Source: a bacterium (GTDB lineage Bacteria; Patescibacteriota; Microgenomatia; Daviesbacterales; UBA10151). From it: DNA of 64,000 nucleotides. The position numbers and the translations under genes are program-made. Below the pieces are notes generated by a model. That model worked only from the letters and a program-made list of their open reading frames with translations, did no database searches and was not told the DNA's origin. Below, piece after piece: positions 12,507-53,473 of the stretch; the first letter of the stretch is position 1, and every line of letters starts with the position of its first letter. Where the stretch lies: the NCBI GenBank assembly GCA_021786315.1, contig JAJYNN010000002.1:545494-609493 (forward strand), given 5' to 3'.

Positions 12507-12618
12507 AGATAGCACTAGATATTTTACCTCAATTTGATCTCAGTTAAAAGCCTTTTGCTTTACTCTTTTATTACTTCTTTAATATTTGAAAGTTAAAGGG
12601 TGTGTCTATACTTTTCCC

Positions 12619-13803: not shown

Positions 13804-13808
13804 TCGAG

Positions 13809-14060: not shown

Positions 14061-14689
14061 TCTTTTTCAGCAGAGTTGGTGGCAGGATGGGCTGATTTGC
14101 TGCCTTCTTTCTGCCAATTCTTCCCCTCAGAAGTAGCAGAGTTAAAACTCTTAAGTGTCCTGATAATTTTAGATGCATCCTCACGGATAGCATGAATATC
14201 TTGTCTTATCGCCTTAAATTGAGTTTCAATAGCCTGGAATCCAGCTTTGTCTACTGCGGTTCCTTTTTGGGCATCAACATTTGCCAATCTTGTCTTGGCA
14301 TCAGCCAATTTACTTCTGGCATCAGTCATAGCTGCACTCATAGAAGTCACATCTTTTCCGGCATTTTTCGCGGCATCAATTCGAATTTGTAACTTATCTA
14401 AAATCTTGCCTGCAAGATCCAAAGACCTACTTAAGGCAGTTTCCCTGGCATCAACTGCTTTTCTCACTCTGGTAACTATTGCCTCCTTTTTGGCGTCTCT
14501 TTTTTCGGATACTTTTTCCTTTATATTGGTAACTCTTTCCTTGACAGTCTCCTCCAGTCTCCTAATTCCGGAGGTGGAAGCATTAGTTGGCCTCACTTCA
14601 TTACTGCCTTCCGCAAAAACAACTCCCGTCGCAGAAAGCGCTACAACAACAGACAAAGCTATAGCGATAGTGGCTTTTTGTATCTTCAT
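14057..14689 (-). CDS. secreted coiled-coil protein, hypothetical
   Basis: Signal peptide, then Ala/Lys/Glu-rich heptad-like sequence. Confidence 0.4.
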   Translation of the reverse strand: MKIQKATIAIALSVVVALSATGVVFAEGSNEVRPTNASTSGIRRLEETVKERVTNIKEKVSEKRDAKKEAIVTRVRKAVDARETALSRSLDLAGKILDKLQIRIDAAKNAGKDVTSMSAAMTDARSKLADAKTRLANVDAQKGTAVDKAGFQAIETQFKAIRQDIHAIREDASKIIRTLKSFNSATSEGKNWQKEGSKSAHPATNSAEKD

Positions 14690-14982
14690 AATCCCTTTAA
14701 TTCATTGGATAAATCAGAACCAGTGGTATCAATGTTGGCAAGATCCTTATCCAAAGCTGTTAAATCCTGGTCCAAAGCCTGGTCAGAAACATCTGGGGTA
14801 GGAGTTACCCGCACGTTTTGGGAAACTGTACCCTCCTGGGCGGGTTTTATTTCATTAATAGTCTTGGTGATTCCAATTTTTGAACCAAACTTATCTAAAA
14901 CACCAATTTTTACCGGGGAAAACATGTAGTACCCTGCAAGGATAAGAATTAAAGCTAAAAAAGCAACGAATAACTTAATCAT
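14686..14982 (-). CDS. small membrane-anchored hypothetical protein
   Basis: N-terminal TM MIKLFVAFLALILILAGYYMF. Start overlaps the downstream gene's stop. Confidence 0.3.
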   Translation of the reverse strand: MIKLFVAFLALILILAGYYMFSPVKIGVLDKFGSKIGITKTINEIKPAQEGTVSQNVRVTPTPDVSDQALDQDLTALDKDLANIDTTGSDLSNELKGL

Positions 14983-15091
14983 AGAGCAGTAAATTTATAC
15001 TACAACCAGCCCTAAAAACTGTCAAGAATATCAAACTAAATCAAGTCTAGATAATGTTGTAACTTCTATATCTTGTAGATATACTAAATTT

Positions 15092-16069
15092 ATGGAAGAT
15101 AACCTGCCCAAATCTGATAATCAATTTTGGTATGAAAATCAGCCCAACCATAATGAACCTCTTCAACCACAACCAGAACCTGCTCCTGCTGGTCCTCCAA
15201 TTCAAATAACAGAGAATAAGAAATACTCAGAGAAAAATGACCCGCCGATGGTAGATGTTAAAGTGACCAATCCTGTCTCCTACTTTAAAAAGTGGGTTAA
15301 ACATCTTTTAGGTAATGAGGGTATTGATATCGGTTTCAAATTTAAAGTTAAACCCTTAACCGCCATAGCTTTAATGGTTGCCTTGGCTGTTTCTTTTGGC
15401 ACTGGTTATGGAACTGGATTAAACGCCGCTGCCGGAGTTTTATTCCCCAACTCCTCCCCGCTTTTACACAGAACCGTGATGTACCAAGGAAATTTGCAAA
15501 AGGCAGGTGACAAATATCTTCTAATCCTTCCCAATTCAGATACTTATACTTTAAAACCCAAATCCAATACTAATATTAACTTTCAAAATTTAACTGATGG
15601 CCCGGTTTTAGTTAAAGGAAACTTAACCAGGGAAGCGTTTGTGATTGAACCCTCAGAAGTTATATCTTTAGGTGGTTCAGCCCCTGAGCCGCAAGCTACC
15701 CTTACCCCAACTAACTCTTCCATCTCTAATCCCACCGATTTCCCTAGTCTTTACCCCAGCCTGACTTGGGAAGTAACTCAAGAAAAAGTTTTAATATTTA
15801 CTTCGGGAAAAAGAAAGATCGAACAAAATGGTGTCTACCTGGAATCTGCTCAGGTACCTACTCTTCCTCAAGATTTCTTGAATTACTATACCAATGAGCT
15901 ACAAACCAAAGGTTTTGAGGAAACCTTAAATTCCAAAGATCCGGAAGGAACCACAATCACCTTTGCCAAAAATGACCTCTACTTAACCTTCGGCATCAAA
16001 AACATCTTTAAAGGCTCAGGCGACACCCGCCAACTCTCCGGCTACAAAGCCTTCATAGAACATAACTGA
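15092..16069 (+). CDS. Pro-rich membrane-anchored hypothetical protein (paralog A of 26482..27273)
   Basis: The core DPPMVDVKVTNPVSYFKKWVKHLLGNEGIDIGFKFKVKPLTAIALMVALAVSFGTGY is shared with the island-borne paralog. Confidence 0.5.
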   Translation: MEDNLPKSDNQFWYENQPNHNEPLQPQPEPAPAGPPIQITENKKYSEKNDPPMVDVKVTNPVSYFKKWVKHLLGNEGIDIGFKFKVKPLTAIALMVALAVSFGTGYGTGLNAAAGVLFPNSSPLLHRTVMYQGNLQKAGDKYLLILPNSDTYTLKPKSNTNINFQNLTDGPVLVKGNLTREAFVIEPSEVISLGGSAPEPQATLTPTNSSISNPTDFPSLYPSLTWEVTQEKVLIFTSGKRKIEQNGVYLESAQVPTLPQDFLNYYTNELQTKGFEETLNSKDPEGTTITFAKNDLYLTFGIKNIFKGSGDTRQLSGYKAFIEHN

Positions 16070-16084
16070 TCTCCACGCAGGGCG

Positions 16085-16702
16085 TTGCCTTGCGTAGGCT
16101 CAGTTAACAACATATGGTATTATTCCCCCATGGCTGAAAGATCAATATTAGGAATAACAGAAGAAAGAGTTAATAGAGCTGAAGACATTGTAGAAGAAAC
16201 TACCGATATCGAAAGAACCGACGATATGTTTAGGTTTATTAGAGGTGTAAACAAAAGGATATCCCGGGAACAAAGAGAACTTTATCTTAATTTAAAAACC
16301 GCCAAGGAAAGATTTCAAGTTGGTTCAGCACTCGCTTATGGATATGCAGCTGCAGTAACTTATGAAATGCTTCCTGATGAAGTAAGAAAAATTGAACTCA
16401 CTCAGGATCAAGTGGAGACTTCAACCAAGAGCCTACTTGATTCAAACCAAGATGAAAATGGATGCTTTGATTGGTATTTGGACAAATTAATAGCCGACTC
16501 TCCTTATTATATTAACTGGTTAATAGATACACTTGAAGATATTGAAGACCCAGAAGAAAAGCGTGATTTTACCTATGGTAGCGTTCTAGTCACACTTCCT
16601 TTTTATCAAAGAGGCGAGGCGTTTATCTTAGCCAATCAAATATGGTATAGACAAGACAGACCTCTCCTTACCTTACTCGAAGTTGAACTTGTACCACAAT
16701 AA
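16085..16702 (+). CDS. hypothetical protein (acidic)
   Basis: 205-aa ORF. No recognisable domain. Confidence 0.35.
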   Translation: MPCVGSVNNIWYYSPMAERSILGITEERVNRAEDIVEETTDIERTDDMFRFIRGVNKRISREQRELYLNLKTAKERFQVGSALAYGYAAAVTYEMLPDEVRKIELTQDQVETSTKSLLDSNQDENGCFDWYLDKLIADSPYYINWLIDTLEDIEDPEEKRDFTYGSVLVTLPFYQRGEAFILANQIWYRQDRPLLTLLEVELVPQ

Positions 16703-16810
16703 CAACACTATTTTCTCAACCCTACTGGCCTTCAGGATTATTTTTTGTTAAAATTACCACTACGGCGCGTTCGTCATAGTGCGCAAGCGCCAGACGAACT
16801 ACCTTGAAAA

Positions 16811-18406
16811 CTAAATATAGATGGCGCGTTCGTCTAGAGGCCTAGGACACTGGGTTTTCATCCCAGGAATCGCGGGTTCGAATCCCGCACGCGCTACTGA
16901 GAGGGATTGTAAGAAGGTTGTGTTTGATTTCCTCTGCGCGGGTGGGGGCGCGCAGAGCTCTCTAAAGCCCTGATTGTAGTCTACGGAAAGTTGCCGATTC
17001 AATAAAAAGAAGTTCGAGCCGACAGTTTTTGCTCCTATGCTTAAATCGGAGCATGTATTTTTTGCGCGCGCGATTTTTGCGCACGAAAGTGCGCTTCCGA
17101 CCCACTCTCTCATAGGTTCGAGCCAACTCGAACCGTTTTGTCTTATTCTCTCCAAATCTTCCTGAATTTTAAGTTTTTGTTCAAAAACTTCGTTCTTTTT
17201 ACTTTTATAAGTTTCACCATCTATTACCTGATCCAAGAAACTATCAAGTAACAAATTGAGCTTTTTATCTAAAGTTTCCAGCTCGTTTTTTAGGGAGATT
17301 ATATTTTCCTCAATGAACTTTTGCTCCTCAACTTCATCCCGATCCATCCATTTATACCAATCATGAGCCCAACTTTCGGGAATAGACACATCAGAAACAA
17401 TCTTTCTTACTTGTAGTTCTAAATCTTCTTGAGAAATATATTTTTGAGAACAAGGTTTAATTTTCTTAGTGCATCTATAGTAAATAAAGGTTTGTTTATT
17501 ACCATTTTTATATTTTTTAGTATGAGTTTCGGTAGTAATAGCCGCACCGCACTCTCCGCACCTCATCAAACCTCTAAAAGCAAAATCATGGCCATTTTTC
17601 CTTGGTCTTTCAATTCTTTTTATTTCTTGTTGAGCAGAATCAAATAGTTTTTTAGAGATAAATGTTTTATGAGAGCCCTGATAATACTCACCGTTATACT
17701 TTAAAATCCCAATATAAAATCTGTTGGATAGCATTTTCTTTATTTGGTTTATATGTAAAGGTTTTTTGTTTATGGTTGTACTTACCCAACCTCGAGTTAA
17801 CCCTAATTTGTGAAGATAGAGGGATATTTCCTTGTAAGATTTACCTCCCTCGGCAAAAAGTTCAAAGGCCTTTTTAATTGCTAAAGAAGTTTCCGGATCT
17901 ACTTGAACAGTTTTTGTATTCGAGTCGTTTTTATACCCGAAAGGTGCTTTCATTGGCCAAACTCCATTGCGAAGTTTTTGCCTTAGCCCACGTTTTACAT
18001 TTTCTGATAAGTTGTCGACATAATATTTGGATTGGCCAAAGGCAATATTTAGCATAAATTTTCCCTGTGGAGTATTTTCAAACCAGAAGGTAGGGAATTT
18101 AAGGTTTAGAAGATTACCGGTATCCAAGAGGTAAATTATTTGGCCGCCGTCAATTGAGTTACGAGCTAATCTATCGGGATGCCAGGCAATAATACCTTGT
18201 GCCTGTCCTTTCTCGATCTTTTTTATTACCTCTGCGAATTTTTCTCTTCCGGGGAGTTTAGCGGTTTTTGACTCTGTTATAAATTCTTTGATTTCTAAGT
18301 TCTCTCTTTTGGCAAATTCTTGAAGCTCAGCAATTTGAGCCTCAATAGAAAGGACTTGTCTATCCTTCTCATCTGTTGATTTTCGGCAGTATGCTATATA
18401 TTTCAT
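16811..18406 (-). CDS. large serine recombinase (resolvase/invertase catalytic domain + recombinase domain + Zn-ribbon + coiled coil)
   Basis: N-terminal YCRKSTDEKDRQVLSIEAQ (Y-x-R-x-S motif), GIIAWHPDRLARN, a Cys4 ribbon CGECG...YYRC, and a coiled-coil tail. The frame has no stop until 16811, so it reads through IR1-left into the tRNA-Glu antisense. The true 3' end is uncertain. Confidence 0.8.
   Translation of the reverse strand: MKYIAYCRKSTDEKDRQVLSIEAQIAELQEFAKRENLEIKEFITESKTAKLPGREKFAEVIKKIEKGQAQGIIAWHPDRLARNSIDGGQIIYLLDTGNLLNLKFPTFWFENTPQGKFMLNIAFGQSKYYVDNLSENVKRGLRQKLRNGVWPMKAPFGYKNDSNTKTVQVDPETSLAIKKAFELFAEGGKSYKEISLYLHKLGLTRGWVSTTINKKPLHINQIKKMLSNRFYIGILKYNGEYYQGSHKTFISKKLFDSAQQEIKRIERPRKNGHDFAFRGLMRCGECGAAITTETHTKKYKNGNKQTFIYYRCTKKIKPCSQKYISQEDLELQVRKIVSDVSIPESWAHDWYKWMDRDEVEEQKFIEENIISLKNELETLDKKLNLLLDSFLDQVIDGETYKSKKNEVFEQKLKIQEDLERIRQNGSSWLEPMREWVGSALSCAKIARAKNTCSDLSIGAKTVGSNFFLLNRQLSVDYNQGFRELCAPPPAQRKSNTTFLQSLSVARAGFEPAIPGMKTQCPRPLDERAIYI
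16823..16896 (+). tRNA. tRNA-Glu (anticodon UUC)
   Basis: GGCGCGTTCGTCTAGAGGCCTAGGACACTGGGTTTTCATCCCAGGAATCGCGGGTTCGAATCCCGCACGCGCTA. D-arm TTCGTCTAGAGGCC is typical of tRNA-Glu. Anticodon loop TTTTCAT. Confidence 0.9.
16894..16996. repeat. IR1-left: 103-bp perfect inverted repeat (partner 18490..18592)
   Basis: Exact reverse-complement match to 18490-18592, verified base by base. Overlaps the last 3 nt of tRNA-Glu. Confidence 0.9.
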
Positions 18407-18489
18407 GGCAGTTTATCTTTAGGGGAAAAGTTCTTTTAGCGACAGCGTTTCCCAGAAATTTTTGCGTGTCTTCTTACTATCTTTCTTTA

Positions 18490-18592
18490 CGGCAACTTTC
18501 CGTAGACTACAATCAGGGCTTTAGAGAGCTCTGCGCGCCCCCACCCGCGCAGAGGAAATCAAACACAACCTTCTTACAATCCCTCTCAGTAG
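18490..18592. repeat. IR1-right: 103-bp perfect inverted repeat (partner 16894..16996)
   Basis: Exact reverse complement of 16894-16996. Lies between the recombinase start (18406) and IR2. Confidence 0.9.
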
Positions 18593-18703
18593 TACGGTAT
18601 CAACAAATTCGAACCTATTTCAAATCGACGTATGCATCGGTCGGTCGGTAGAAGCCCCTCCGCTTCGCGTCGGGGCCTTCTGATCTTTAAGCTCGGCCTT
18701 CGG
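18589..18703. repeat. IR2-left: 115-bp perfect inverted repeat (partner 28385..28499)
   Basis: Exact reverse complement of 28385-28499. Abuts IR1-right, sharing 4 nt. Confidence 0.9.
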
Positions 18704-18764
18704 TCGAAGCTCTGAAACTGTCGGTTCCGAAAACGCAAAAATTTCAAAGAACTTTTCCAAAAAA

Positions 18765-21700
18765 TTATGCACTAAGTTGTATGTATGGATAATCCTTGTA
18801 AAGATTCTCTGCCTGTTCATATACCTTATCAACCATCAAGTCCACCTCTGCAAATGAAATATTATTCCTTAATAAGACTAACCTCACATCTGCTCTTACT
18901 CGAGCTTTAATAATTTCATGGTTAGTCCAGTCAATTGCTATATCTGCCCTTATAGCATGTATAATTTCTTTCACAATCCTCTTTAGATTACTATCTTTTA
19001 AAGACTTCTTACCCAGTGATAAGGCATCATAAAAAGCTAATTCCTCTACTGTTAATCCAATCTCCTTGCCAACTTCACTTGCTTGTCTAATTTCTCTAGC
19101 CAGTTCTAATAATTTATCTATCACTTTAGATGAATTGATAATATTGTTTTCATATTCCTCAATGATTTCTTCTAATTTATTAAGGAGAGTGTCATACCTT
19201 AAAATATTTGTTCTTCTGCGCATTTTTAATTCATCTTTTAACAGTTTGTTTATTGCCTCAATTGTTAGATTCTTAAATCTAGATTTCTTAATATCTTCCA
19301 GGAATCTTTCATCCAATATAGAAATATCAGGTTCCTCTCTCCCATTTTGAGAAAATATATCTATTACACCCTCAGCGACTATATTTTTTGAGATTAGATC
19401 TTTAATCGCGGTTTCTGTTTCATTACTTATATAGATTGGGTCTACAGTAGTGTTTTTAATGATAATTTTTCTAACTCCTTCGAAAAATTCTAGTTCTTCC
19501 CGAATATTATTTGCCGCTTTATGTGGCATTACTAAAGAGAAAAATTTATATAGTCTGCTGGAAAGGCTTAAGTATTGGTCTTTTTGTGCTGTATTTATAC
19601 CACCAGATACCGGATCCGTTAAAATTCCATTAACCGCTCTTGCAAAAAGTGACGCCAGTTCGCTACTAGGTAACTTATGCCAGTTGGTATATTCAATCCC
19701 TTCAAAAAATTTCTTTACTTTTTTATAGTGTTCTAACATTTTCGCGACCATCTCCTCTATTGGAACCATGGCTTGTTTTTGAACATCCGAAGTGTAGATT
19801 GCTAAAGCTTTCTTTAAGTTATCAGCAACACCAATATAATCAACAATTAACCCACCCTCTTTATCTTTATAGCGTCTGTTAACCCTAGCAATTGCCTGCA
19901 TCAAAGTATGACCTTCAAGAGGTTTATCTAAATAGAGTGTATTTAAATGAGGAACATCAAAGCCTGTAAGCCACATATCACAAACGATAACAATTTTTAA
20001 AGGATCTTCAGGATTTTTGAATCTTTTCTCAATTTCCCTATTATCTAACTCTTCTTGAATTTGTCCCTGAAAATCCTTACTGCCAGAAACAACAACAGCA
20101 ATTTCCGGTGCACCCTTCATTGTTTTGATAATTTCGTACATTCTTGCAGCAATTCTTCTACTCATAGTCACAAGTAATGCCTTTCCTTTATATCTTCTAT
20201 TTATAAAATGAAAAACGACATCATAAGCCACTTTTTGTAATCGATCCTCCGCTCCAATAGCGCTCTCCAAAGTAGCCCATTTATTCCTTAAGACGTCTTT
20301 TGTATCTATTGGATGCTCAGCTAATAATTGATCAAAGTCCAAATCAATGTATTTGTTGAAAACATGTAGAGGGGTTAATCGTCCTTCATAGTAGATTGGC
20401 ACCGTTGTTCCGTCCTCAACTGCTTTATCAATTGGATATTCACTAAATTCCTCACCAAAGACCATTTGTGTATTTCTGTTTTGCAAAGAGATTGGAGTAC
20501 CAGTAATACCCATAAAAGAGGCATTTGGTAAAACATCTCTAACATTGCCTGCAAATGTGGCATATTGCGATCTGTGCGCTTCGTCTGCAATCACGATAAT
20601 ATTTTCTCTTTCCGATAAAGGTTCTCTCGTATCAAACTTCTGAATAGTAGTAAATAGAACCTCGGATCCAGCTCCTTTTAGCTGATTAATTAATCCAGCG
20701 ATACTGCCTGCTTGTTTTACAGTGGGGTAACCTGTTCGCAAGAAAGTTTTATACAGCTGCTGATCCAAATCATTACGGTCTGTTAAAAACAGTATTGTCG
20801 GGCTTTTTAGTTGCTCCGCTCTTTTAGCTTTATTAACATAGAAAACCATAGATAAAGATTTTCCGCTTCCTTGTGTATGCCAAAAAACTCCAATCTTTTT
20901 ATTACTAACGATAGCTTGTAAAGTTCTTCCAATCGCTTTGTTCACGCCAAAATATTGATGATACATCGCCATCTTCTTGGTAAATTTAGAAGCATCTTTC
21001 TCAGCGTCTGCCTCAAAGACAATAAAGTTCTCAATTAGATCAAGTAAATGATTTTTATTAAACATTCCCTTTATCAAAAGTTCTAATTCTGACTTCTCTA
21101 GATTTTTTTCGTTCTCACTCTCTATTCCTTTCCAAACATTAAAAAAGTCGAAGGAAGACGAAATAGTTCCATGCTTCGCCTTCATTAGATCGCTGATAAC
21201 AAGTACCTGGTTATACAAAAATATCTTTGGAATTTCTTTTTTATACAAGTCGTGAATTTGTGAGTATGCGTCGGCAATTGTCACCTTTCCATCAACGGGA
21301 TTTTTTACTTCAAATAATCCCACGGGAATTCCGTTAATAAAAACGACCACGTCTGGAATTCTTATAGAAGATCCTTGAACAGAAAATTGGTTAACTACTA
21401 AAAACTCGTTGTTATCCGGATTTCTATAATCAATAATATTTACGATCTCACCTTTAAGATCATTATTTTTGTCTTTGACTTCTACTCTTATCCCTTCCGT
21501 CAACCACTTAAAAACTTCTTTGTTTCCTAACTCTAAATCCTGATGATCATATTTAGTGATCTTATCTACAACCTCGTTAACTTTTTCATCTGGAATATCT
21601 GGATTTATTCTTTTTAAAGATCTTTTTAGTCGCGTCTCTAGAACAACCTCTCTATAATCACTACGTTCTTGAAAAGTTCCGCCAGGGGAGATATCAGGAC

Positions 21701-21782
21701 CATATGCATGTTCATAACCCAATTCATTGAGCCATTCTAATACTGGTTTTTCTGCTAAATTATTTTCATTAAGTTTTGACAT
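18765..21782 (-). CDS. hsdR: type I restriction enzyme R subunit HsdR
   Basis: HTQGSGKSLSMVFYV (Walker A), IVIADEAHRSQY (DEAH box), helicase C motifs. 1005 aa. Confidence 0.95.
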   Translation of the reverse strand: MSKLNENNLAEKPVLEWLNELGYEHAYGPDISPGGTFQERSDYREVVLETRLKRSLKRINPDIPDEKVNEVVDKITKYDHQDLELGNKEVFKWLTEGIRVEVKDKNNDLKGEIVNIIDYRNPDNNEFLVVNQFSVQGSSIRIPDVVVFINGIPVGLFEVKNPVDGKVTIADAYSQIHDLYKKEIPKIFLYNQVLVISDLMKAKHGTISSSFDFFNVWKGIESENEKNLEKSELELLIKGMFNKNHLLDLIENFIVFEADAEKDASKFTKKMAMYHQYFGVNKAIGRTLQAIVSNKKIGVFWHTQGSGKSLSMVFYVNKAKRAEQLKSPTILFLTDRNDLDQQLYKTFLRTGYPTVKQAGSIAGLINQLKGAGSEVLFTTIQKFDTREPLSERENIIVIADEAHRSQYATFAGNVRDVLPNASFMGITGTPISLQNRNTQMVFGEEFSEYPIDKAVEDGTTVPIYYEGRLTPLHVFNKYIDLDFDQLLAEHPIDTKDVLRNKWATLESAIGAEDRLQKVAYDVVFHFINRRYKGKALLVTMSRRIAARMYEIIKTMKGAPEIAVVVSGSKDFQGQIQEELDNREIEKRFKNPEDPLKIVIVCDMWLTGFDVPHLNTLYLDKPLEGHTLMQAIARVNRRYKDKEGGLIVDYIGVADNLKKALAIYTSDVQKQAMVPIEEMVAKMLEHYKKVKKFFEGIEYTNWHKLPSSELASLFARAVNGILTDPVSGGINTAQKDQYLSLSSRLYKFFSLVMPHKAANNIREELEFFEGVRKIIIKNTTVDPIYISNETETAIKDLISKNIVAEGVIDIFSQNGREEPDISILDERFLEDIKKSRFKNLTIEAINKLLKDELKMRRRTNILRYDTLLNKLEEIIEEYENNIINSSKVIDKLLELAREIRQASEVGKEIGLTVEELAFYDALSLGKKSLKDSNLKRIVKEIIHAIRADIAIDWTNHEIIKARVRADVRLVLLRNNISFAEVDLMVDKVYEQAENLYKDYPYIQLSA

Positions 21783-21783
21783 A

Positions 21784-22602
21784 TTAGTGATCTTCCAATT
21801 GTAATTTTTGTTGAGGTTCTTTATATGACTCTATATCAACTACTTTAATTTTGGGAACCTCATAATCACTATTTCTTATTACTATCCCTCTCAACTGAAC
21901 TTTTTCCATTTCAAGATATTCGTGAAATTTCGTCGTACTCTTTTCTTTATCCAAAGGAGAAACATTTAAGGTGTACCCTTTATAAATAAATCCTAAATCA
22001 TTTAATTTTTTATTTATCCGTGTAATTTCTCCATCTATAACAACTTCCTCTCCGTTTCTAAGTTCCGGTAATATGGGATCTTCTTGTTTATCTACATAAA
22101 ATTGATACTTATTATCGCAAGTAATCTTGAATGACTTATCTCCTATAACGATTTCCGCATGTTCGTTGTATTCGCTAACTGGCCTCGCCATTTTTTCTGC
22201 ACCTTTTCTGAAATCATAACTTCTACATAATTCAAAGACCTTCTTGTCGGAAATGGCGTCTAACAATTCTTTTGTGGGATTCTTCAAGCTATTCGATCCA
22301 AATCTATCGATTATTACAAAGGCTGATACTATTATTGTGGCTACATAACTTATTCGCTCTACGGTTTGCCAGGGGTGCTTCTGAACATATATAAGCTTTG
22401 TTCTAACCGAACCATTTTCAATTGGAAGAACGTATATATTATCGTAAGCCAGCATTCCTATTTTTGCTGCTTCTTTTAAACATGTCTCCAAGCCAATAAT
22501 TGCTTCTCCTAACTCTTTAGCTGGCATTGCACTTTTTTCCGCAGAATACACTAAGAATATTTCCGATGAAGAGGGATCGACTTGGAATAGTTGTTGATTC
22601 AT
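21784..22602 (-). CDS. hypothetical protein embedded between hsdS and hsdR (no recognisable domain)
   Basis: 272-aa ORF, translationally coupled on both sides (1-nt gaps) inside the hsdM-hsdS-X-hsdR operon. Confidence 0.5.
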   Translation of the reverse strand: MNQQLFQVDPSSSEIFLVYSAEKSAMPAKELGEAIIGLETCLKEAAKIGMLAYDNIYVLPIENGSVRTKLIYVQKHPWQTVERISYVATIIVSAFVIIDRFGSNSLKNPTKELLDAISDKKVFELCRSYDFRKGAEKMARPVSEYNEHAEIVIGDKSFKITCDNKYQFYVDKQEDPILPELRNGEEVVIDGEITRINKKLNDLGFIYKGYTLNVSPLDKEKSTTKFHEYLEMEKVQLRGIVIRNSDYEVPKIKVVDIESYKEPQQKLQLEDH

Positions 22603-23745
22603 CTAAATTGTTATTTCTCCTTTCATTAATTTTGGTAAAAGCAAATCACGCAAAGCAGTTAATTTTTGATTTTCCAGCTTTAAACTGATCATAGTTCTGT
22701 AAGTAACATCAAAAATATTTATATTTTTATTGTCAGATATAAAAATATTTTGTTCTTTTAAATGCTCTTTTTTAATATGTCCCATGGTCGTAGCTTTGGC
22801 ACCCGCCTGTTGTTGAAAAAATTTTAGCTTCGACTTAAGAAGAAAATATATAAACCCTTTGGAAAAATCACTTGTTGGAACTACATTAAATATATGCTGG
22901 TTTAATATCGCCTTATCTTTATCCCAGATATACAAATCTACTGTACCAGACCAAGAGAATAGCAAGTCACCGTTTTGGATGTAATATTTATCGTCCACCT
23001 TTTTGTCTATCCATTCAGTATTATCTGAAACTCCTCTGTTTAAGTCAGCAATTTTTATTAGCGGAAGTCCTTTCTTCATTCTGTTTGTAATTTTTCCAAA
23101 AGCCCCGCCATTAATATAATTCGCTATATCCAACAATGAATATTTAGTACCTTCATTAGAGGAGAACCATTTTTTAAAAAATGTCTGGGCCATTTCTTCT
23201 AAAGTTTTTGAAATTTTATTGTTCACTTCAATCTTTTCATCTAATGCAGCTAAAATTCTGGAAATTTTTTTTTGTATAGACAATGGAGGGGTTGGAACTA
23301 AAACATTCTCGAAAGTACCAAGATTAATATTGTCTTGTGCGCTACCGATGGCATAACTTTGAATATTTCTCTTAAGATATTGCAGAGAATATAGAATAAA
23401 ATCTGGATCGCTTTTTTCTTCGTCTGCTAAAAAACCGATTACACTATCAGGGAAACACGCCGGAAAAGTTAGTTTTCCTAAATCTGCAATATTTGCTGCG
23501 ATCGTTATACAAATTGTATTAACGGGCCACATCCTACTTTGTTTTAAACCATTTTCACTGTATGTTTGTGAATATGAAGTTATTCGACCACCTGAGGCTT
23601 TCACATCACCTGTTTGTATAAATGGGTACGGACCACCATACAATATCCTTGCGTCTCTTGGCCGATGTCGAGATCTTCCTCTATTAAGTTCACCTAACTG
23701 AGTTAATTTTTTTAATTGCCAATTATCTGGAATCTGATTTTGCAT
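22603..23745 (-). CDS. hsdS: type I restriction-modification specificity subunit HsdS (two target-recognition domains)
   Basis: 380 aa. Duplicated TRD/conserved-helix architecture. Positioned between hsdM and hsdR. Confidence 0.85.
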   Translation of the reverse strand: MQNQIPDNWQLKKLTQLGELNRGRSRHRPRDARILYGGPYPFIQTGDVKASGGRITSYSQTYSENGLKQSRMWPVNTICITIAANIADLGKLTFPACFPDSVIGFLADEEKSDPDFILYSLQYLKRNIQSYAIGSAQDNINLGTFENVLVPTPPLSIQKKISRILAALDEKIEVNNKISKTLEEMAQTFFKKWFSSNEGTKYSLLDIANYINGGAFGKITNRMKKGLPLIKIADLNRGVSDNTEWIDKKVDDKYYIQNGDLLFSWSGTVDLYIWDKDKAILNQHIFNVVPTSDFSKGFIYFLLKSKLKFFQQQAGAKATTMGHIKKEHLKEQNIFISDNKNINIFDVTYRTMISLKLENQKLTALRDLLLPKLMKGEITI

Positions 23746-23746
23746 A

Positions 23747-25537
23747 TTAATAATTAATCTTTTTTAGATTTTCTAAAATTTCCTTTTCTAATTTTTCAGA
23801 TTTTGTGAAATATTGTTTTAGTTCTGATTCTAATTCTTTCATCTTTTCTTCGAACGGAACTCCATCCTCCTCTTCATCCTCCACTCCAACAAAACGACCC
23901 GGTGTTAAAACATAACCACTTTTTACAATTTCCTCTTTTGTTGTTGCCTTACAAAATCCGGAAACATCTTTATATTCTCCATTTTCGCTCCTCCAAGCCC
24001 TCACAGTATTAGCAATTAGCTGAACTTGTTCTTCATTAAAAGTCACTTGTTTTCGAGAGATTTGAGTAAAATATTTTGAGTCTCGAGCATCAATGAAAAG
24101 AGTTTCTCCTTTTCTGTTTCTGAATCTGCCGGATTCTTTATTTTTTGTGACAAACCATAACGACACTGGAAGGGAAACATTAAAAAATAGTTTTGGAGGA
24201 CAAGCAATTATTACATCAATCAGATCATCCTCAATCATTCTTTTTCTGATTTCACCTTCCTTGCCGGAAACAGCCAACGCTCCATTAGCCATTACAAATC
24301 CAGCTATTCCATTTGGGGTTAAGTGGTTTATAAAATGTTGAATCCACATAAAGTTAGCATTTCCTTTCGGAGGAGTGCCATAAACTAATCTCGGATCTTT
24401 TTCAGAAAGACGATCTGAATCCCATTCTGCATTAAATGGAGGATTAGCCAGGATAAAATCGACTTTAAGTTCTCTGAACTTGTCATCATAGTAAGAATTA
24501 CCAAATTGGATATTTCCAAAAACTCCACGGATAGCAAGATTCATCTTGCAGAGCTTTAAAGTTGTTTGATTACTTTCTTGGCCGAATATGGATATTTTTG
24601 TCGGATCTTTATGGTGCTCTTGCAAGAATTTGCTGGACTGGACAAACATTCCACCAGACCCACAACATGGGTCTAAAACCCTACTGTTTTCATAAGGTTC
24701 AAGAATTTCAACTAAAAGTTTTACTAGCGAACGAGGTGTATAAAATTCTCCTCCTCTTTTACCCTCAGCATCAGCAAACTGTCCCAAGAAATATTCATAG
24801 ACTCTACCAAGTAAATCTTTCTCTCTATCCTCATCATCGTTGAAATCTATCCGGGAAAAAATATTAATGAGTTCTCCTAAGATTTGACTTTCAAGTGGAA
24901 CGCGAACATAACTCTTTGGCAGAACTCCTGTCAGCTGTTCAGGGTTTTCATTTTCTATAGCTTCCATAGCATCGTCGATATACTTCGCTAAATCTGATAA
25001 GGCAGCTTTGCTTCTCAAATATTCCCATCTGGCGATTTCTGGAATATAAAAGATCCCCTCCTTCTTATACATGTCTTTATCTTCCAAAATCATTTCTCGA
25101 GCAGCGGGGTTAGGGATATAGTATTGCTTGTTTTTGGAATCACTCATCCATTTTTGAAGTTTTTCTCTTCTTTGGTAAAAAGAATCAGAAATATACTTAA
25201 GGAAAATAAGACCTAAAACGACATTCTTGTAATCAGAAGAATCAATATTACCCCTAAGTCTATCTGCAGCTGCCCATAGCTCTTTTTCAAAATGAATATC
25301 TGTTTTAGGTTTACTAGCTAAATCCCGAGCTTCCTTTGCTGTAGCTTTTTGAGTTTGGATAATTCTATCTTTAAAATCCTGAGGAAGAGTATTGTACTTT
25401 AGAAGATATTTTTTACCCTCTGTTCGTGTTTCGATTTCTCCAGCATTAATTTTACCTTGGAGTTGCTTTAAAACAGCCTGACGAGATATACCTAATATCC
25501 TGGCGATATCACTAATTGAGATAAAATTTTCATCCAT
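23747..25537 (-). CDS. hsdM: type I restriction-modification N6-adenine methyltransferase HsdM with extra N-terminal HTH-like domain
   Basis: HsdM_N motif ELWAAADRLRGNIDSSDYKNVVLGLIFLKYISD, SAM motif LDPCCGSGGM, catalytic NPPF (FILANPPFN). The first ~85 aa (ISISDIARILGISRQAVLKQL) are an additional HTH. Confidence 0.95.
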   Translation of the reverse strand: MDENFISISDIARILGISRQAVLKQLQGKINAGEIETRTEGKKYLLKYNTLPQDFKDRIIQTQKATAKEARDLASKPKTDIHFEKELWAAADRLRGNIDSSDYKNVVLGLIFLKYISDSFYQRREKLQKWMSDSKNKQYYIPNPAAREMILEDKDMYKKEGIFYIPEIARWEYLRSKAALSDLAKYIDDAMEAIENENPEQLTGVLPKSYVRVPLESQILGELINIFSRIDFNDDEDREKDLLGRVYEYFLGQFADAEGKRGGEFYTPRSLVKLLVEILEPYENSRVLDPCCGSGGMFVQSSKFLQEHHKDPTKISIFGQESNQTTLKLCKMNLAIRGVFGNIQFGNSYYDDKFRELKVDFILANPPFNAEWDSDRLSEKDPRLVYGTPPKGNANFMWIQHFINHLTPNGIAGFVMANGALAVSGKEGEIRKRMIEDDLIDVIIACPPKLFFNVSLPVSLWFVTKNKESGRFRNRKGETLFIDARDSKYFTQISRKQVTFNEEQVQLIANTVRAWRSENGEYKDVSGFCKATTKEEIVKSGYVLTPGRFVGVEDEEEDGVPFEEKMKELESELKQYFTKSEKLEKEILENLKKINY

Positions 25538-25627
25538 GCCGGAAGCAGTATAGTACTAAAAAATAATTCTGTCAAGTTGTCATCGTGACAACCTTAAATT
25601 AGAAATAATTGCGATACAAGAGTTTCT

Positions 25628-26485
25628 TCAGTAACACTTTTTAGTGCTACTACCCTCTAAATAATAAGACTCTTTTTTAGGATCAAACCGATATGTATTC
25701 TTTTCTTCGGTATCACTTCCATGATCTCCACAAGACCAACCTTGCTCAACCTTCCCTTCAGAATTTGGCAGAAAGTTATCGACCCAGTAGAAAGTTTGAT
25801 CTTTGTTGATTATTGGATAGACAACAGCTTTATTATTGGCCTTACTATATCCCAAGACTAAATGTTCAGTATGTCCACAAGCCAAAGTAAAACCATTTAG
25901 GAGAAACTCATAATAATACCCATCGCCGTTTAAATCCTGAAAATTCATCAAGTCCACATCTGTATACTCGAGTTGTTCTACAGAAGGTTCGCTACCTTCC
26001 AATTTCAAATAAGCCGGATCAGCGTTCATTCTGATATTTTGATAAGCTAAACGGATATTATTGCTTGGAGGTAATGGTTTCCCTGTACTTAAATCTACAT
26101 TAGAGCCCGAACCCGGAATCGAAACATCATTAATAAGTTTGTTGTTTTGTATCAGGGCTAAATGATAGTTACCTTCAATCGCTCTTCCCTCTATGCCGGA
26201 AGCACAAGAAGTATAAGCAGACCATCTGCGGGATGGTTCTAATAATTCGTCTGTTTTAGAGTTTAATACATAGAGCACCAAGTACGATTCAGGAGAAAGA
26301 TTGGGAATTTTCTTATATTCTCGGAGTAATGCTTCTTTGGGAATTAAGTTCTTGATAGAACTGTCGCTAATATTTGTTTTATCGGGTTTATTTATGTTTT
26401 TTGTATCAATTTTTAAAGAGGGAAAATAGAAGAAACCAACAATCAACACAAATGGAATGATAAATAATAACTTTTTTCTGCTCAT
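25628..26485 (-). CDS. secreted/membrane-anchored Cys-containing hypothetical protein
   Basis: N-terminal TM LLFIIPFVLIVGFFYF. No recognisable domain. Confidence 0.4.
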   Translation of the reverse strand: MSRKKLLFIIPFVLIVGFFYFPSLKIDTKNINKPDKTNISDSSIKNLIPKEALLREYKKIPNLSPESYLVLYVLNSKTDELLEPSRRWSAYTSCASGIEGRAIEGNYHLALIQNNKLINDVSIPGSGSNVDLSTGKPLPPSNNIRLAYQNIRMNADPAYLKLEGSEPSVEQLEYTDVDLMNFQDLNGDGYYYEFLLNGFTLACGHTEHLVLGYSKANNKAVVYPIINKDQTFYWVDNFLPNSEGKVEQGWSCGDHGSDTEEKNTYRFDPKKESYYLEGSSTKKCY

Positions 26486-27273
26486 TTATTACTATCAAAA
26501 ATATTTATTTCAGATACATTAATAACATTGGCTTCTCTAGTTAGGTTTCCTTTAACCATTACTTGTTTGTTTATAGAATTGTTGATGGTATTGAGGGCTG
26601 TTTGGGATTTTGGGAGTAGCTTCCATAAAGTTGTATCGGGTAAAGATAAATAGTATTGTCCGTCTTGAGTTTTCTGAATAGTTCCTTGATAGACAATAGC
26701 TCGATGAAGGATAGGGCTTGAGTTAGGGAAAAGAATTCCGGCAGCCGAATTTAGACCAGAGGTATAACCAGTTCCGAAAGAAGCTGCGAGGGCAATCATA
26801 ATAGCTACTGCAGTCATAGGCTTAATTCTAAACTTAAATCCAATATCTATGCCCTCGTTTCCCAAAAGGTGTTTAATCCATTTTTTAAAGTAAGTTACGG
26901 GATTAGTAACTTTCACATCCACCATTGGAGGATCATTATTTTCTGAGTATTTATCATTTTGGGTTACTTGGATTGGAGCAGGGTAAGAGGAATCAGGGTG
27001 ATCAGGGATATTAGGGGAAATTGGAGGATTGGGATTATCAGGGACAGTATAATCACTTTTAATAAAGTGTCCTTGGGCATCTCGCTTTTGGTGTTTTGCT
27101 AATTCACTTTGAACAGGGTCTATTAAGTCAGGAGAAGGATTTGAAGGAATAGGAGGAATGGGGGTATCAGGGAAATTGGGGGGATTCGGGGAAGGAGTTT
27201 GAGCTAATGGTTCGGGTTGAGTTGGTTGTTGAGGGGTAAAGGAATTATTAGGATCAGGCAGTTTGTCATCCAT
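26482..27273 (-). CDS. Pro-rich membrane-anchored hypothetical protein (paralog B of 15092..16069)
   Basis: Shares the DPPMVDVKVTNPVTYFKKWIKHLLGNEGIDIGFKFRIKPMTAVAIMIALAASFGTGY core with the chromosomal paralog. Confidence 0.5.
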   Translation of the reverse strand: MDDKLPDPNNSFTPQQPTQPEPLAQTPSPNPPNFPDTPIPPIPSNPSPDLIDPVQSELAKHQKRDAQGHFIKSDYTVPDNPNPPISPNIPDHPDSSYPAPIQVTQNDKYSENNDPPMVDVKVTNPVTYFKKWIKHLLGNEGIDIGFKFRIKPMTAVAIMIALAASFGTGYTSGLNSAAGILFPNSSPILHRAIVYQGTIQKTQDGQYYLSLPDTTLWKLLPKSQTALNTINNSINKQVMVKGNLTREANVINVSEINIFDSNK

Positions 27274-27339
27274 AAATCCAGTATATCTACTAGATTAGAA
27301 AGGTGCAACTGCAGCGGAAATATACAAAAAGTTATCCAA

Positions 27340-28330
27340 TATATTGTGTATTGACTCGGCTTTCCATACAAGGTGTAAAATTTAATTACTCTCTGCAGTA
27401 GCGGAGGTAGAAGGGAGGGCCATGAATTTGACCCAACTTTTGTACTCCGTGAGTATCTTTGGTAATTGAAACTAGCAAACGGACAAGCAAGGAGGATCCA
27501 AATAACCTTGCTTACTTAATTGTTCAGGGAAGATTACTGACAACACTCTAGCGGAGGCTCACCTTTGTCTTACCTAAAGGTTAAGTGTTGTCTACCGGAA
27601 AATTGGGAGAGAATAACCAATCAAAGCAAACTGAGACGTCGGTTTGGGGAGATATAGGTATTAGGTACTTTTGTAGGTGAGAGGGCCACTCAGTATTCTC
27701 ACTGGGTGGCCTTTTCTTTATTCTCCTTGCAAACTCTTTTCTCTTCTGTGGCGGTTCCGCCGCCCCCGCCCCTTTGGGATAATAACCGTTCAGGAGGGCA
27801 GCACCTTAGAAGAAATCTTTTTGGAATTAGTAGTAAGTAAAATGGGTGCTGCCCGACAATAGCGAGGGCCGAGAAAGCCAAGTCATATTTTAGAAGAACC
27901 GGCCCGAGCCCTCGGAATTAGTGCGAGAAAGTTTCTCGAGAAACTTTCGAGCGGCATGGATGCAAGTAGGGCTAAAAATTGCGGCGGGGGCGATTGCGGA
28001 CAAACCCCCGCAACGGCAGGAGGTATTAGAAAGAAGAAAAGGGTAGGCGAAAAGTACCGAAGGTAACCTTACCCAACGAACTTTTCGCCGAGTTAGATAC
28101 TACCAATACTAGTTCGTAAGGCAACAATATAGGCGAGGCGCCCCCTAGGGCGACCTCTCGCCCAAAAGCGGGGGTGCCGCTACTACTAATTTGGGTGGGT
28201 GGGTTAGTTCAGGATACAAGATTTACTCTTCTTACCCGTTACCGTAGCGGTAACGGTATCCGTAACGGTCCGTTACGGTGATTAGCTTGTCAAAAACCGC
28301 TAAACTCCCCATTCTTAAATATCTTAATAA
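27340..28330 (+). other. ~1 kb GC-rich non-coding region with dense predicted secondary structure (candidate structured ncRNA and/or iteron/ori-like region)
   Basis: No ORF of 62 aa or longer on either strand. GC-rich helices in an AT-rich genome. Several helices only work with G-U pairs on the + strand. Contains a 22-bp perfect palindrome and four ~11-nt CCGTTACGG-type repeats. Confidence 0.3.
27684..27720 (+). terminator. rho-independent terminator-like hairpin inside the non-coding region
   Basis: GGCCACTCAGT-attctc-ACTGGGTGGCC followed by TTTTCTTTA. Confidence 0.5.
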
Positions 28331-28384
28331 TTCTTTAAAAATCGCGCGCTTTTCTGTCTCTTAGCAAAAAATACCAGAGCGAGG

Positions 28385-28499
28385 CCGAAGGCCGAGCTTA
28401 AAGATCAGAAGGCCCCGACGCGAAGCGGAGGGGCTTCTACCGACCGACCGATGCATACGTCGATTTGAAATAGGTTCGAATTTGTTGATACCGTACTAC
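28385..28499. repeat. IR2-right: 115-bp perfect inverted repeat (partner 18589..18703)
   Basis: Exact reverse complement of 18589-18703. Confidence 0.9.
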
Positions 28500-28510: not shown

Positions 28511-28540
28511 TCCTCCCTTCGGGGAGGCTTTTTGTTTTTT
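28511..28540. terminator. bidirectional rho-independent terminator
   Basis: CCTCCC-TTCG-GGGAGG hairpin with a T-run on the + strand (CTTTTTGTTTTTT) and an A-run before it. Insulates the island from the sigma/anti-sigma operon. Confidence 0.65.
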
Positions 28541-28639
28541 AACTGTGATTAGGCAAGAATCTGCGCATCTCGCAGAGCTAAGCAGGTTCGATCAGGCAAA
28601 GCCTGACAACATCTTCGAGCAAAGCGAGAAGTAGTGTTA

Positions 28640-28657
28640 ATCCCCGCACGCGCTACT
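28640..28657 (+). repeat. direct repeat of tRNA-Glu 3' end (putative attR core)
   Basis: atccccgcacgcgctact versus tRNA 16882-16898 atcccgcacgcgctact (one extra C). Preceded by the motif acaacatcttcgagcaaagcgagaagtagtgtta. Confidence 0.7.
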
Positions 28658-47041: not shown

Positions 47042-47183
47042 CTTGCGGGACCGACGGGACTAAGACCACCTTTTTGTTCTTCGAACAAAAACGATCTTGT
47101 CTTCTCGCTTCGCTCGAAGATCGAACCAACTTAGAACTTCGTTCTGCGTATATTTCTCTCCCAAGCAATCAGCCAATAAAAAA

Positions 47184-47209
47184 GTCCCCATAAAGGGGAC
47201 TACTTTTTT
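47184..47209. terminator. bidirectional terminator hairpin
   Basis: AAAAAA-GTCCCC-ATAAA-GGGGAC-TACTTTTTT. Confidence 0.55.
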
Positions 47210-47211
47210 GT

Positions 47212-47288
47212 TGGCGGGACCGACGGGACTCGAACCCGCGACCTCTTCCGTGACAGGGAAGCGCTCTAACCAACTGAGCTACGATCCC
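47212..47288 (-). tRNA. tRNA-Asp (anticodon GUC)
   Basis: Reverse complement GGGATCGTAGCTCAGTTGGTTAGAGCGCTTCCCTGTCACGGAAGAGGTCGCGGGTTCGAGTCCCGTCGGTCCCGCCA. Anticodon loop CTGTCAC. Confidence 0.9.
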
Positions 47289-51291: not shown

Positions 51292-51431
51292 CTAGTTCAG
51301 TAGACCATAACCACATTAAAATATCAATCACCTTCCTTGGTTTCCTCCGCCAACTTGAGTTATAATTTGAGCGAAGCGATAATTTCAAGCTCCGCTTATA
51401 ATTTGAGCGAAGCGAGAATTACAGGATCGTT

Positions 51432-51460
51432 TTGACGCAGTCAAAAGGTAGCCCTATAAT
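51432..51460 (+). promoter_or_regulatory. sigma70 promoter of tRNA-Gly
   Basis: TTGACG, a 17-nt spacer, TATAAT. The tRNA starts 9 nt downstream. Confidence 0.55.
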
Positions 51461-53312: not shown

Positions 53313-53385
53313 GCCGATGTAGCTCAGTGGCAGAGCAATGCTTTCGTAAAGCAAAGGTCGTGAGTCCGATTCTCACCATCGGCTC
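53313..53385 (+). tRNA. tRNA-Thr (anticodon CGU)
   Basis: GCCGATGTAGCTCAGTGGCAGAGCAATGCTTTCGTAAAGCAAAGGTCGTGAGTCCGATTCTCACCATCGGCTC. Anticodon loop TTCGTAA. Confidence 0.85.
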
Positions 53386-53473
53386 CGAGCAAAGCGAGAA
53401 GACAAAGTGAGAACAACATCTTCGAGCAGAGCGAGAAGTAGTGTTATTCTCACCATCGGCTCTCACAATTTTT

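Follow-up and report, generated by a model that had tools for sequence, protein, structure and literature searches.

We examined a 64-kb stretch of a Daviesbacteria genome (GenBank assembly GCA_021786315.1, contig JAJYNN010000002.1, positions 545,494–609,493; hereafter the window), which carries six tRNA genes, Lys, Glu, Asp, Gly, Thr, and Val (ARAGORN, confirmed with Rfam). Our subject is a set of short inserts without genes that follow tRNA genes in this window, consist of hairpin modules, and end in a copy of the 3' end of the adjacent tRNA. Protein searches assigned the window to Candidatus Daviesbacteria (Microgenomates, candidate phyla radiation). A further ∼130 kb from loci of relatives (among them L154, L160, L163, L164, L166, and L168) brought the Daviesbacteria DNA compared to ∼194 kb.

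At tRNA-Thr(CGT) (53313–53386, plus strand; ARAGORN, 65.4 bits in Rfam), the last 17 nt, ATTCTCACCATCGGCTC (53369–53385), recur exactly at 53446–53462, where they close a 76-nt insert (53387–53462). This second copy extends from T-loop nucleotide A58 to 1 nt beyond the discriminator, and the ATG of the downstream gene begins 11 nt after it. The 60 nt between the repeats contain two copies of a hairpin motif, CTCCGAGCAAAGCGAGAAG (53383–53401) and CTTCGAGCAGAGCGAGAAG (53420–53438). The former is an A-type hairpin, CTCC-GA-GC-AAA-GC-GA-GAAG, with one mismatch to the motif and with the 3' terminus of tRNA-Thr itself as its 5' arm, while the latter belongs to a unit B (53413–53446), ACAACAT-(CTTC GA GC AGA GC GA GAAG)-TAGTGTTA, in which an outer stem AACA/TGTT encloses an inner hairpin with tandem G·A pairs and a trinucleotide loop. 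Between them lies GTGAG (53407–53411), a copy of the 5' strand of the tRNA-Thr T-stem, with which a partial second copy of the tRNA begins. The T-arm of this tRNA is GTGAG-TCCGATT-CTCAC, and given that its T-stem strand GTGAG, an unusual one, is duplicated here, unit B lies inside the T-loop of the partial second copy. The locus was identical in contigs of two other sequencing runs. In the syntenic locus L160 (same genes on both sides, Nramp 83% identical), the ATG of the downstream gene follows tRNA-Thr after 21 nt, with neither hairpins nor copy, indicating that the Thr segment is a lineage-specific 76-nt insertion.

The same layout was found at three other tRNA genes of the window. Downstream of tRNA-Asp(GTC) (47212–47288, minus strand; ARAGORN, Rfam), an intrinsic terminator (47183–47201) is followed by a module C-like segment with the 3' end CTAAGTTGGTTCGA (47121–47158), hairpin A, TCTTC-GA-GC-GAA-GC-GA-GAAGA (47101–47120, the motif itself at 47101–47119), a variant unit B, ACAAGAT-(CGTTTTTGTTC GAA GAACAAAAAGG)-TGGTCTTA (47061–47100), and a 17-nt copy of the tRNA 3' end, AGTCCCGTCGGTCCCGC (47061–47045), that starts at T-loop A58, all on the minus strand. 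The insert of tRNA-Glu(TTC) (16823–16897, plus strand) lies beyond an 11.6-kb island, treated below, that parts the gene from its terminator (28512–28527, homologous to the terminators after tRNA-Glu in L163, L164, and L166). Behind this terminator come module C with the stem GAATCTGC...GCAGGTTC plus GA (28557–28591), a hairpin TCAGGC AAA GCCTGA and unit B ACAACATCTTCGAGCAAAGCGAGAAGTAGTGTTA (28592–28639, unit B at 28606–28639), and a 17–18-nt copy of the tRNA-Glu 3' end with one extra C, ATCCCCGCACGCGCTACT (28640–28657). tRNA-Lys(TTT) (12434–12506, minus strand; ARAGORN, Rfam) carries two inserts in tandem on its own strand. The right part of the first (12296–12372) consists of module C (12372–12338), a hairpin CTCC-GA-G-TCTT-C-GA-GGAG (12337–12320), and a 19-nt tRNA-Lys copy (12314–12296), and the second (12157–12289) of a terminator (12289–12271), a degenerate T-arm piece CCTTCGAATCCAC, hairpin A (12225–12201), unit B (12202–12169), and a closing 12-nt tRNA-Lys copy, GCCGGGTCACAA (12168–12157).

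The preliminary description of this stretch had placed motif plus 3'-end copy at tRNA-Thr, with coordinates that proved exact, and at tRNA-Asp, where we recovered the same arrangement. It had further held that these two and the Glu and Lys genes share one end motif, which is correct for the layout, but the full 34-nt motif occurs only at Glu and Thr, whose units B, 25 kb apart, are identical at 33 of 34 positions. The end module at Lys has the same flanks as at Glu and Thr but a different, fully complementary inner hairpin, and at Asp the tip motif belongs to the neighboring hairpin, the end module being the variant ACAAGAT...GTGGTCTTA. A fifth locus had been overlooked: two to three units directly upstream of tRNA-Gly (51360–51456, plus strand), read as two A-type hairpins (51360–51392 and 51396–51420) and a unit B (51421–51456), with no tRNA copy. 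No unit lies near tRNA-Val in the window or downstream of tRNA-Gly.

Anatomy and distribution of the hairpin modules

A complete insert comprises, in this order, a terminator after the intact tRNA, a short spacer, module C, one or two hairpins (B, and A as a second B-like hairpin upstream of it), and a tRNA copy of 12–19 nt that runs from T-loop nucleotide 58 or 59 to 0–4 nt beyond the 3' end. Intrinsic terminators stand between tRNA and modules at Asp, Glu, and the second Lys insert. Module C, GAATCTsCGCATCTsGCAsAGCTAAGsAGGTTCGA, is common to Glu and the first Lys insert and is present in a diverged form at Asp; the 3' strand of its stem is GGTTC, then GA, and its end pairing is GAATCTGC/GCAGGTTC in Glu versus GAATCTCC/GGAGGTTC in Lys. 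The DNA to the left of the hairpins ends in GGTTCGA, resembling the left half of a T-loop. Given that the copy on their other side starts at nucleotide 58 or 59, the hairpins are enclosed by the T-loop of a second, partial copy of the tRNA and do not simply stand before a copy of the 3' end.

Beyond sequence, structure is conserved in these modules. Unit B has the consensus ACAAsAT, inner hairpin, (T/G)RGnnnTTA, and its inner hairpins differ in sequence while being always self-complementary: 62 of 74 inner-stem positions form Watson-Crick or G·T pairs, the remainder being mostly tandem G·A, and none of 20,000 shuffles matched this. Compensatory changes were found in the 4-nt outer stem, which is AACA/TGTT, AAGA/TCTT (as in the Asp variant), or AGG/CCT, and in the tip, where GC..GC became GT..AC in the L154 copy. 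Nearest-neighbor folding recovered the nested hairpins with modest energies. Directly 3' of the inner hairpin, a GT[AG]G tetranucleotide (GTAG or GTGG) is present in all nine units. The tip GA-GC-GAA-GC-GA contains d(GCGAAGC), an exceptionally stable mini-hairpin of single-stranded DNA (PMC13037366), and every module here has a GNA or AAA triloop closed by C-G. The Thr and Glu tips, however, have AGA and AAA loops, and the literature on d(GCGAAGC) deals with the replication origins of phages and the chemistry of oligonucleotides rather than with repeats beside tRNA genes (PMC13037366). Only tRNAs reached the gathering score in Rfam 15, with merely weak, terminator-driven matches at E values up to 5. 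A hammerhead core, a K-turn, a bulge-helix-bulge intron, and a complete tRNA-like fold were rejected by eye, a 5' acceptor strand being absent.

The motif is strongly tied to tRNA genes. Searched as a 19-mer with up to three mismatches, it matched six times in the window (0.01 expected), and its core GAGCRRAGCGA matched seven times (0.05 expected). Six of these seven core matches lie within 250 nt of a tRNA gene, in DNA that amounts to 5.4% of the window, and the seventh abuts the tRNA-Glu copy. Across the ∼194 kb, every palindrome-flanked copy was located within 216 nt of a tRNA gene or abutted its copy; within this DNA, the motif is thus not scattered without regard to tRNA genes, the condition that the preliminary description had named as refuting its own proposal. 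Units upstream of tRNA-Gly and, in the locus L153, after tRNA-Cys stand without any att-like duplication.

Occupied and empty tRNA genes in Daviesbacteria

Inserts were found after Lys (twice), Glu, Asp, and Thr in the window, Lys and Glu in L163, Asp and Lys in L164, Glu in L166, and Lys in L154, that is, 11 inserts at five places in the window and six in relatives. Empty sites were Gly and Val in the window, Thr in L160, Asp in L163, Glu in L164, Asp and Lys in L166, and Asp, Glu, and Lys in L168. Orthologous Glu, Lys, and Asp genes are thus occupied in some Daviesbacteria species and empty in others. All 11 inserts measure 59–200 nt, share one organization, and contain no gene fragments, which speaks against random decay of large elements. 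The varied occupancy, the empty site in L160, and the near-identical modules at different tRNAs bear out the earlier proposal that a related family of insertions is tied to tRNA genes.

Modules within one genome are 97–99% identical. In L163 (DnaE 76% identical), the tRNA-Lys and tRNA-Glu genes are neighbors. Behind each come a terminator, a spacer, and a 94-nt block that shows one mismatch between the two loci; this block has a sharp left edge at AGAAC, and the identity stops where the copy turns tRNA-specific (ATCCCACCCGaCTCACA in Lys, ATCCCCTACGCGCTAC in Glu). The layout recurs in L164, L166, and L154 at Asp, Lys, and Glu, where other hairpins occupy the space between GGTTCG(A) and the copy. 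The copies are near-perfect (0–1 mismatch), while the spacers beside them have diverged, and they are always those of the local tRNA, including lineage-specific T-stems such as CTCAC of Thr, indicating that they derive from the target or are kept in step with it. The T-stem of the Glu copy, for example, is CCCGC in the window (28640–28657) versus CCCCT in L163 (16535–16560) and L166, and such tracking of each species' own tRNA points to gene conversion, repeated recombination, or independent re-insertion.

Two further observations concern these loci. The tRNA-Lys and tRNA-Glu genes that are co-oriented neighbors in L163 (16500–17130) are separated by 4.3 kb in the window (12434–16897) and point in opposite directions there, L163 lacks ∼21 kb of the window (8.6–30.3 kb) between the RRM and UPF0102 genes, and the breakpoints of the Lys/Glu rearrangement coincide with these tRNA loci. 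In L164 (16779–17125, minus strand), an open reading frame (ORF) of ∼85 aa for a GIY-YIG nuclease, accompanied by hairpins, is inserted at the 5' end of tRNA-Glu and flanked by an 11-nt repeat of that end, GGCGCCTTCGT. It looks like a second, different tRNA-targeting mini-element.

The hairpin inserts are independent of the serine recombinase island

The 11.6-kb island at tRNA-Glu (16898–28499) does not belong to the hairpin family. The ORF of a large serine recombinase (16997–18406) adjoins tRNA-Glu and is followed by type I restriction-modification genes (hsdR/S/M); the remainder comprises ORFs of no assigned function and ∼1.1 kb of ORF-free DNA. One perfect inverted repeat of 103 nt (16894–16996 with 18490–18592) brackets the recombinase gene, and a second of 115 nt (18589–18703 with 28385–28499) brackets the cargo. 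They join at 18490–18703, on the minus strand, as one continuous junction, ..GGTTCGAATTTGTTGATACCGTACTAC|TGAGAGGGATTG, which we read as an intact, inverted attP candidate. This internal attP-like junction and the two inverted repeats together place the island boundaries at 16897/16898 and 28499/28500. At the former, attL, tRNA-Glu continues as ..GCGCTAC|TGAGAGG, with the crossover core at 16894–16897 formed by the last four nucleotides of the gene (CTAC); at the latter, attR reads ..ACCGTACTAC|AAAAGAAAAAGTCC, with the core at 28496–28499 and the host side starting with AAAAG. These junctions place the island exactly at the tRNA-Glu 3' terminus, between the tRNA and its terminator, as the probable product of integration by the large serine recombinase. 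Serine integrases have been stated not to be known to target tRNA genes (Islander paper, PMC4383910). The right end of the island, GGTTCGAATTTGTTGATACCGTACTAC, is a degenerate mimic of tRNA-Glu from T-loop to 3' end, and the attP half has the form GGTTCGAAT-ttgttgat-ACCGTACTAC, in which the distance between the GGTTCGAAT block and the core exceeds that in the tRNA (attB) by 4 nt.

Logan contigs break at 16923 and 28470, at the edges of the 103- and 115-nt repeats, as assembly with k = 31 gives. Since independent Logan assemblies break exactly at the repeat edges, the repeats are real, and a reading of the breaks as strain variation marking the island ends was rejected in favor of this k = 31 signature. 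It may be that the segment with the recombinase gene can invert or that the element has two attP sites.

The hairpin motif had been taken for the right end of this island. Instead, it lies 106 nt outside the island, past the tRNA terminator, and is carried by L163 and L166, which are free of the island. The segment 28500–28657, from the terminator through modules C, A, and B to the tRNA-Glu copy, is host side and aligns with the Glu mini-inserts of these two relatives; in L164, only its terminator part aligns.

On the right side of the island, ∼1.1 kb (27273–28384) is ORF-free, G+C-richer, and packed with hairpins, several of the form stem-GA-(C)GC-GAA-GC(G)-GA-stem and without a match in Rfam. 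Database look-up returned no record for the serine recombinase or for the 205-aa protein of the left flank, and no homologues were found for the 188-aa protein of the right flank.

Possible origins and wider occurrence of the inserts

The best explanation that we can offer, and a tentative one, is that the gene-less inserts form one family of miniature hairpin-module elements (59–200 nt) targeting tRNA genes in Daviesbacteria, as non-autonomous integrative elements that recombine in the T-loop. A tRNA gene with a same-orientation fragment from T-loop to just beyond the 3' end is the textbook mark of tRNA-targeted, target-restoring integration (PMC4383910), and this signature is present at five places in the window and six in relatives. 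With elements of the T-loop class that use tyrosine integrases, the inserts share the intact tRNA with displaced fragment, tandem accretion, and occupied and empty sites, and two inserts in a row at tRNA-Lys are what successive integrations at a single site should leave. Taken together, the L160 empty site, the patchy distribution, the Lys tandem, the small and uniform size, the near-identity of modules within a genome, and the always local copy suggest small, gene-less T-loop elements moved in trans.

Under this explanation, site-specific recombination with a crossover in or beside the T-loop, as for classical tRNA-integrating elements, would bring in DNA that supplies a new tRNA 3' end and terminator, and the original tRNA 3' end would be displaced to the far side, beside the structured arm of the element. 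Given that the elements carry no recombinase, they would be mobilized in trans by one from elsewhere, as attP-only mini-elements and not as stumps of the neighboring island. Excision would restore the empty tRNA-Thr site ..CATCGGCTC|TCACAATTTTT and give the circle junction ..TAGTGTT|ATTCTCACC..CGAGCAAAGC.

By the Islander definition, the fragments (Thr 17, Asp 17, Glu 17–18, Lys 19 and 12 nt) qualify, whereas the inserts contain no ORF, no PF00589 protein was found among the window ORFs scanned, and the lengths of 59–200 nt contrast with 2–200 kb, the tool dropping candidates below 2 kb or without an integrase (PMC4383910). As far as sequence can tell, the inserts thus behave like tRNA-targeted integrative elements but miss two defining features, an integrase and a length of at least 2 kb. 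If T-loop recombination is their origin, they represent an overlooked miniature class, given that island finders, which require both features, discard such inserts. In contrast to known tRNA-targeted elements, the same arm is found at several tRNAs here, and hairpins part GGTTCGA from the fragment. The inserts resemble in part cis-mobilizable elements (CIMEs), kilobase-sized deletion derivatives of a known integrative and conjugative element (ICE) of Streptococcus with a known integrase. Both consist of DNA without recombination genes at att-like sites that is movable, or would be, in trans and accumulates in tandem at the target; the inserts, however, come without an identified parent element or enzyme and have only structured arms. 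The inserts shape tRNA loci, in that they would bring terminators, in one case supply a promoter, and mark sites where larger islands later land. With one scaffold joined to the ends of various local tRNAs, the mode of target choice becomes a question.

Several points weigh against T-loop integration in trans. The surroundings of the inserts showed neither an integrase nor a transposase. Among the ORFs of the window that were scanned, the island encodes the sole recombinase, and none was found in the 10-kb flanks of L160, L163, L164, L166, and L168. Viral scans for autonomous relatives gave chance or coding matches only, two of eight matches in a metagenome scan were real relatives, and neither these scans nor the matches listed from the genome scan included an autonomous relative. 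For one arm to serve four tRNAs, there would have to be several elements whose cores were exchanged, or else a recombinase that recognizes chiefly the universal T-loop. To the left of the copy, the sequence (..GTGTTA) does not mimic a T-stem, unlike the core site of tyrosine recombinases, and the T-loop-like GGTTCGA stands 23–60 nt further left, with the hairpins between it and the copy. tRNA-Glu of L164 has a homologous terminator with neither modules nor copy, which fits insertion downstream of a native terminator better than a terminator borne by the element. Finally, the A and B units found upstream of tRNA-Gly and, in L153, behind tRNA-Cys have no tRNA copy.

The units that lack a copy would be accounted for if A and B were independent units resembling repetitive extragenic palindromic (REP) sequences or MITEs (miniature inverted-repeat transposable elements), possibly miniature derivatives of IS200/IS605-type insertion sequences, that land by tRNAs and especially in the T-loop TTCGA|A of fragments displaced by older, unrelated integrations. 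Copy and hairpins would then be of separate origin, which we consider possible, if unlikely. The tip with its exceptionally stable single-stranded d(GCGAAGC) mini-hairpin (PMC13037366) fits such units, as does the unit after tRNA-Cys in L153, which has ATTTT on both sides. Also in L153, a partial tRNA-Ile copy of greater length is split by a unit exactly in its T-loop, the insertion point follows ..TTCGA or ..TTCAA in Glu, Asp, and the first Lys insert without target duplication, and the hairpins between GGTTCGA and the copy differ at orthologous loci (Asp of the window versus L164, Glu of the window versus L166), as if turning over. Moreover, four nucleotides 5' of the hairpin foot are complementary to the last four before the 3' boundary of the unit, and this pairing covaries, resembling the pairing of guide and cleavage site in IS608.

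The likeness to REP sequences, REPINs, and the IS200/IS605-related miniatures known as palindrome-associated transposable elements (PATEs) remains partial. Short repeated hairpins with conserved feet, GT[AG]G by the palindrome, nucleotides 5' of the hairpin that pair with the 3' boundary, and insertion into T-loops without target duplication are shared, and A and B match the subterminal imperfect hairpins of a PATE. Yet GT[AG]G lies at the 3' foot here (9/9 units) and at the 5' foot in REP sequences, a mirror image, and the inserts are strictly tied to tRNA genes and a tRNA-end copy, with no gene for a RAYT or TnpA transposase seen. A fixed 4–5-nt target, as in a PATE, agrees with TTCGA/TTCAA left of the hairpins in Glu, Asp, and the first Lys insert, but left flanks are not uniform, the others being TTGAG, GGTGA, CATTT, and ATCCAC. 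A target of 4–5 nt would also be expected all over the genome, yet all copies in the 194 kb adjoin tRNA genes. The hairpins of the inserts are always accompanied by module C and the tRNA copy, no copy with an uninterrupted T-loop was seen beside module C, and no Y1/HUH transposase was seen among the window ORFs scanned.

T-loop integration also has to be weighed against the proposal of the preliminary description, that the inserts are dead scars, end-arms joined after internal deletion of full-length elements like the tRNA-Glu island, with only tRNA-Glu retaining its cargo. The tRNA-plus-fragment signature (PMC4383910) and the tandem array at tRNA-Lys are compatible with scars, and the island itself marks tRNA genes here as real integration hot spots. 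We nevertheless consider this origin rather improbable. The island has its ends elsewhere and nothing in common with the modules, the Glu mini-insert is present in island-free relatives, the 11 inserts, all of one organization, contain no gene remnant (0/11), and no full-length relative was found. Decay would not give near-perfect copies that track their own tRNA beside diverged spacers, nor modules that are 97–99% identical within a genome.

The island could instead be instructive for its recombination logic. In that case, the tRNA-like piece would be an element-borne mimic of an attB half-site, with crossover at the tRNA 3' terminus, and the inserts would be joined attP halves of small serine recombinase elements. 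The attP half GGTTCGAAT-ttgttgat-ACCGTACTAC of the island indeed mimics tRNA-Glu from T-loop to 3' end, the 4-nt offset of its GGTTCGAAT block agrees with the attP/attB spacing rule of large serine recombinases, and the mini-inserts follow the same order of GGTTCGA, spacer, acceptor strand, and junction. Their spacer, however, would be 23–60 nt of hairpins, far above the known offset. The terminator, which on this view is the second half of attP, also exists in L164, where there is no insert, and an origin from the target explains the perfect and always local copies without a separate recombinase for each tRNA. We therefore regard a serine recombinase origin of the inserts as very unlikely.

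There is similarly little chance that the modules are a functional cis element, be it DNA or RNA whose structure serves tRNA loci as terminator, insulator, or promoter cassette, or a three-hairpin small RNA whose 3' tail equals the end of the tRNA. Conserved structure with compensatory changes, the orientation of all units with the tRNA, and a conserved T·G wobble in the module C stem that reads as G·U only on the tRNA-sense strand point to function. So does the tRNA-Gly promoter, in which unit B supplies the −35 box TTGACG (51432–51437), followed by a 17-nt spacer and the −10 box TATAAT (51455–51460), which overlaps the 3' end of the unit (11/12 matches). On the other hand, intrinsic terminators lie between tRNA and modules, no promoter-like site precedes the modules, no Rfam family matches them even at E values up to 5, and their presence varies among close species, with tRNA-Val and tRNA-Gly lacking a downstream unit.

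A more speculative possibility, to which we give only slight credence, is that the three-hairpin module and the adjoining 16–19 nt derived from the tRNA are a working recombination site or guide and not a by-product. A folded single strand of DNA or RNA would join GGTTCGA and the tRNA 3' segment into a T-arm-like site, letting one recombinase use any tRNA gene. If true, this would be structure-gated or nucleic acid-programmed retargeting of a mobile element, and it would explain why, in bacteria and in one archaeon or more (L121), identical scaffolds adjoin tRNA ends that differ but are always local. Casposon-like insertion or a target duplication of fixed length was rejected, the left parts of the inserts being locus-specific terminators and not conserved ends, and integron attC sites do not fit, since AAC...GTT is found only in the main subtype (AAG...CTT in Asp, AGG...CCT in Gly) and the full 7-mers RYYYAAC/GTTRRRY do not match.

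The literature, searched for the motif and for such inserts, yielded no relevant description. A pattern scan of species-representative genomes matched at least 119 loci, the source genome not being among the matches listed. Within these listed matches, seven of 18 tRNAs followed by the motif also had 12 nt or more of their own 3' end repeated within 400 nt, versus none of 17 without the motif (Fisher p = 0.008). The seven belonged to a Nanosyncoccus, another Patescibacteria bin, Acidimicrobiia, Acidobacteriota, two unclassified bins, and a Thermoplasmata archaeon, and the same GGTTCG-hairpin-ATCC layout was found in L045, L118, and L120. The inserts occur in very small genomes of the candidate phyla radiation (CPR) and have look-alikes, apparently, in other phyla, including Saccharibacteria, Acidimicrobiia, Acidobacteriota, and a Thermoplasmata archaeon. 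Among the cross-phylum matches listed, flank complementarity beyond the pattern was at random level, and 79 of 123 lay in long stop-free frames; most of them look like chance or coding matches, and only the tRNA-adjacent subset is informative.

At least eight CPR-type genomes (L075, L080, L095, L103, L104, L106, L133, and L142) carry another repeat with the same tip, ..TTATTC-TTCGAGCRAAGCGAGAAG-..TTCTC..-TTCGAACAATAA. No tRNA lies near it, the sole one found being ∼2.7 kb away in L142, which indicates that the tip motif is reused by other repeat families. In several unrelated genomes (L093, 4570–4700; L055, L081, L121, and L128), one of them a haloarchaeon, this hairpin tip lies directly 3' of a tRNA, and the stems consist partly of the last bases of the tRNA and an inverted copy of them.

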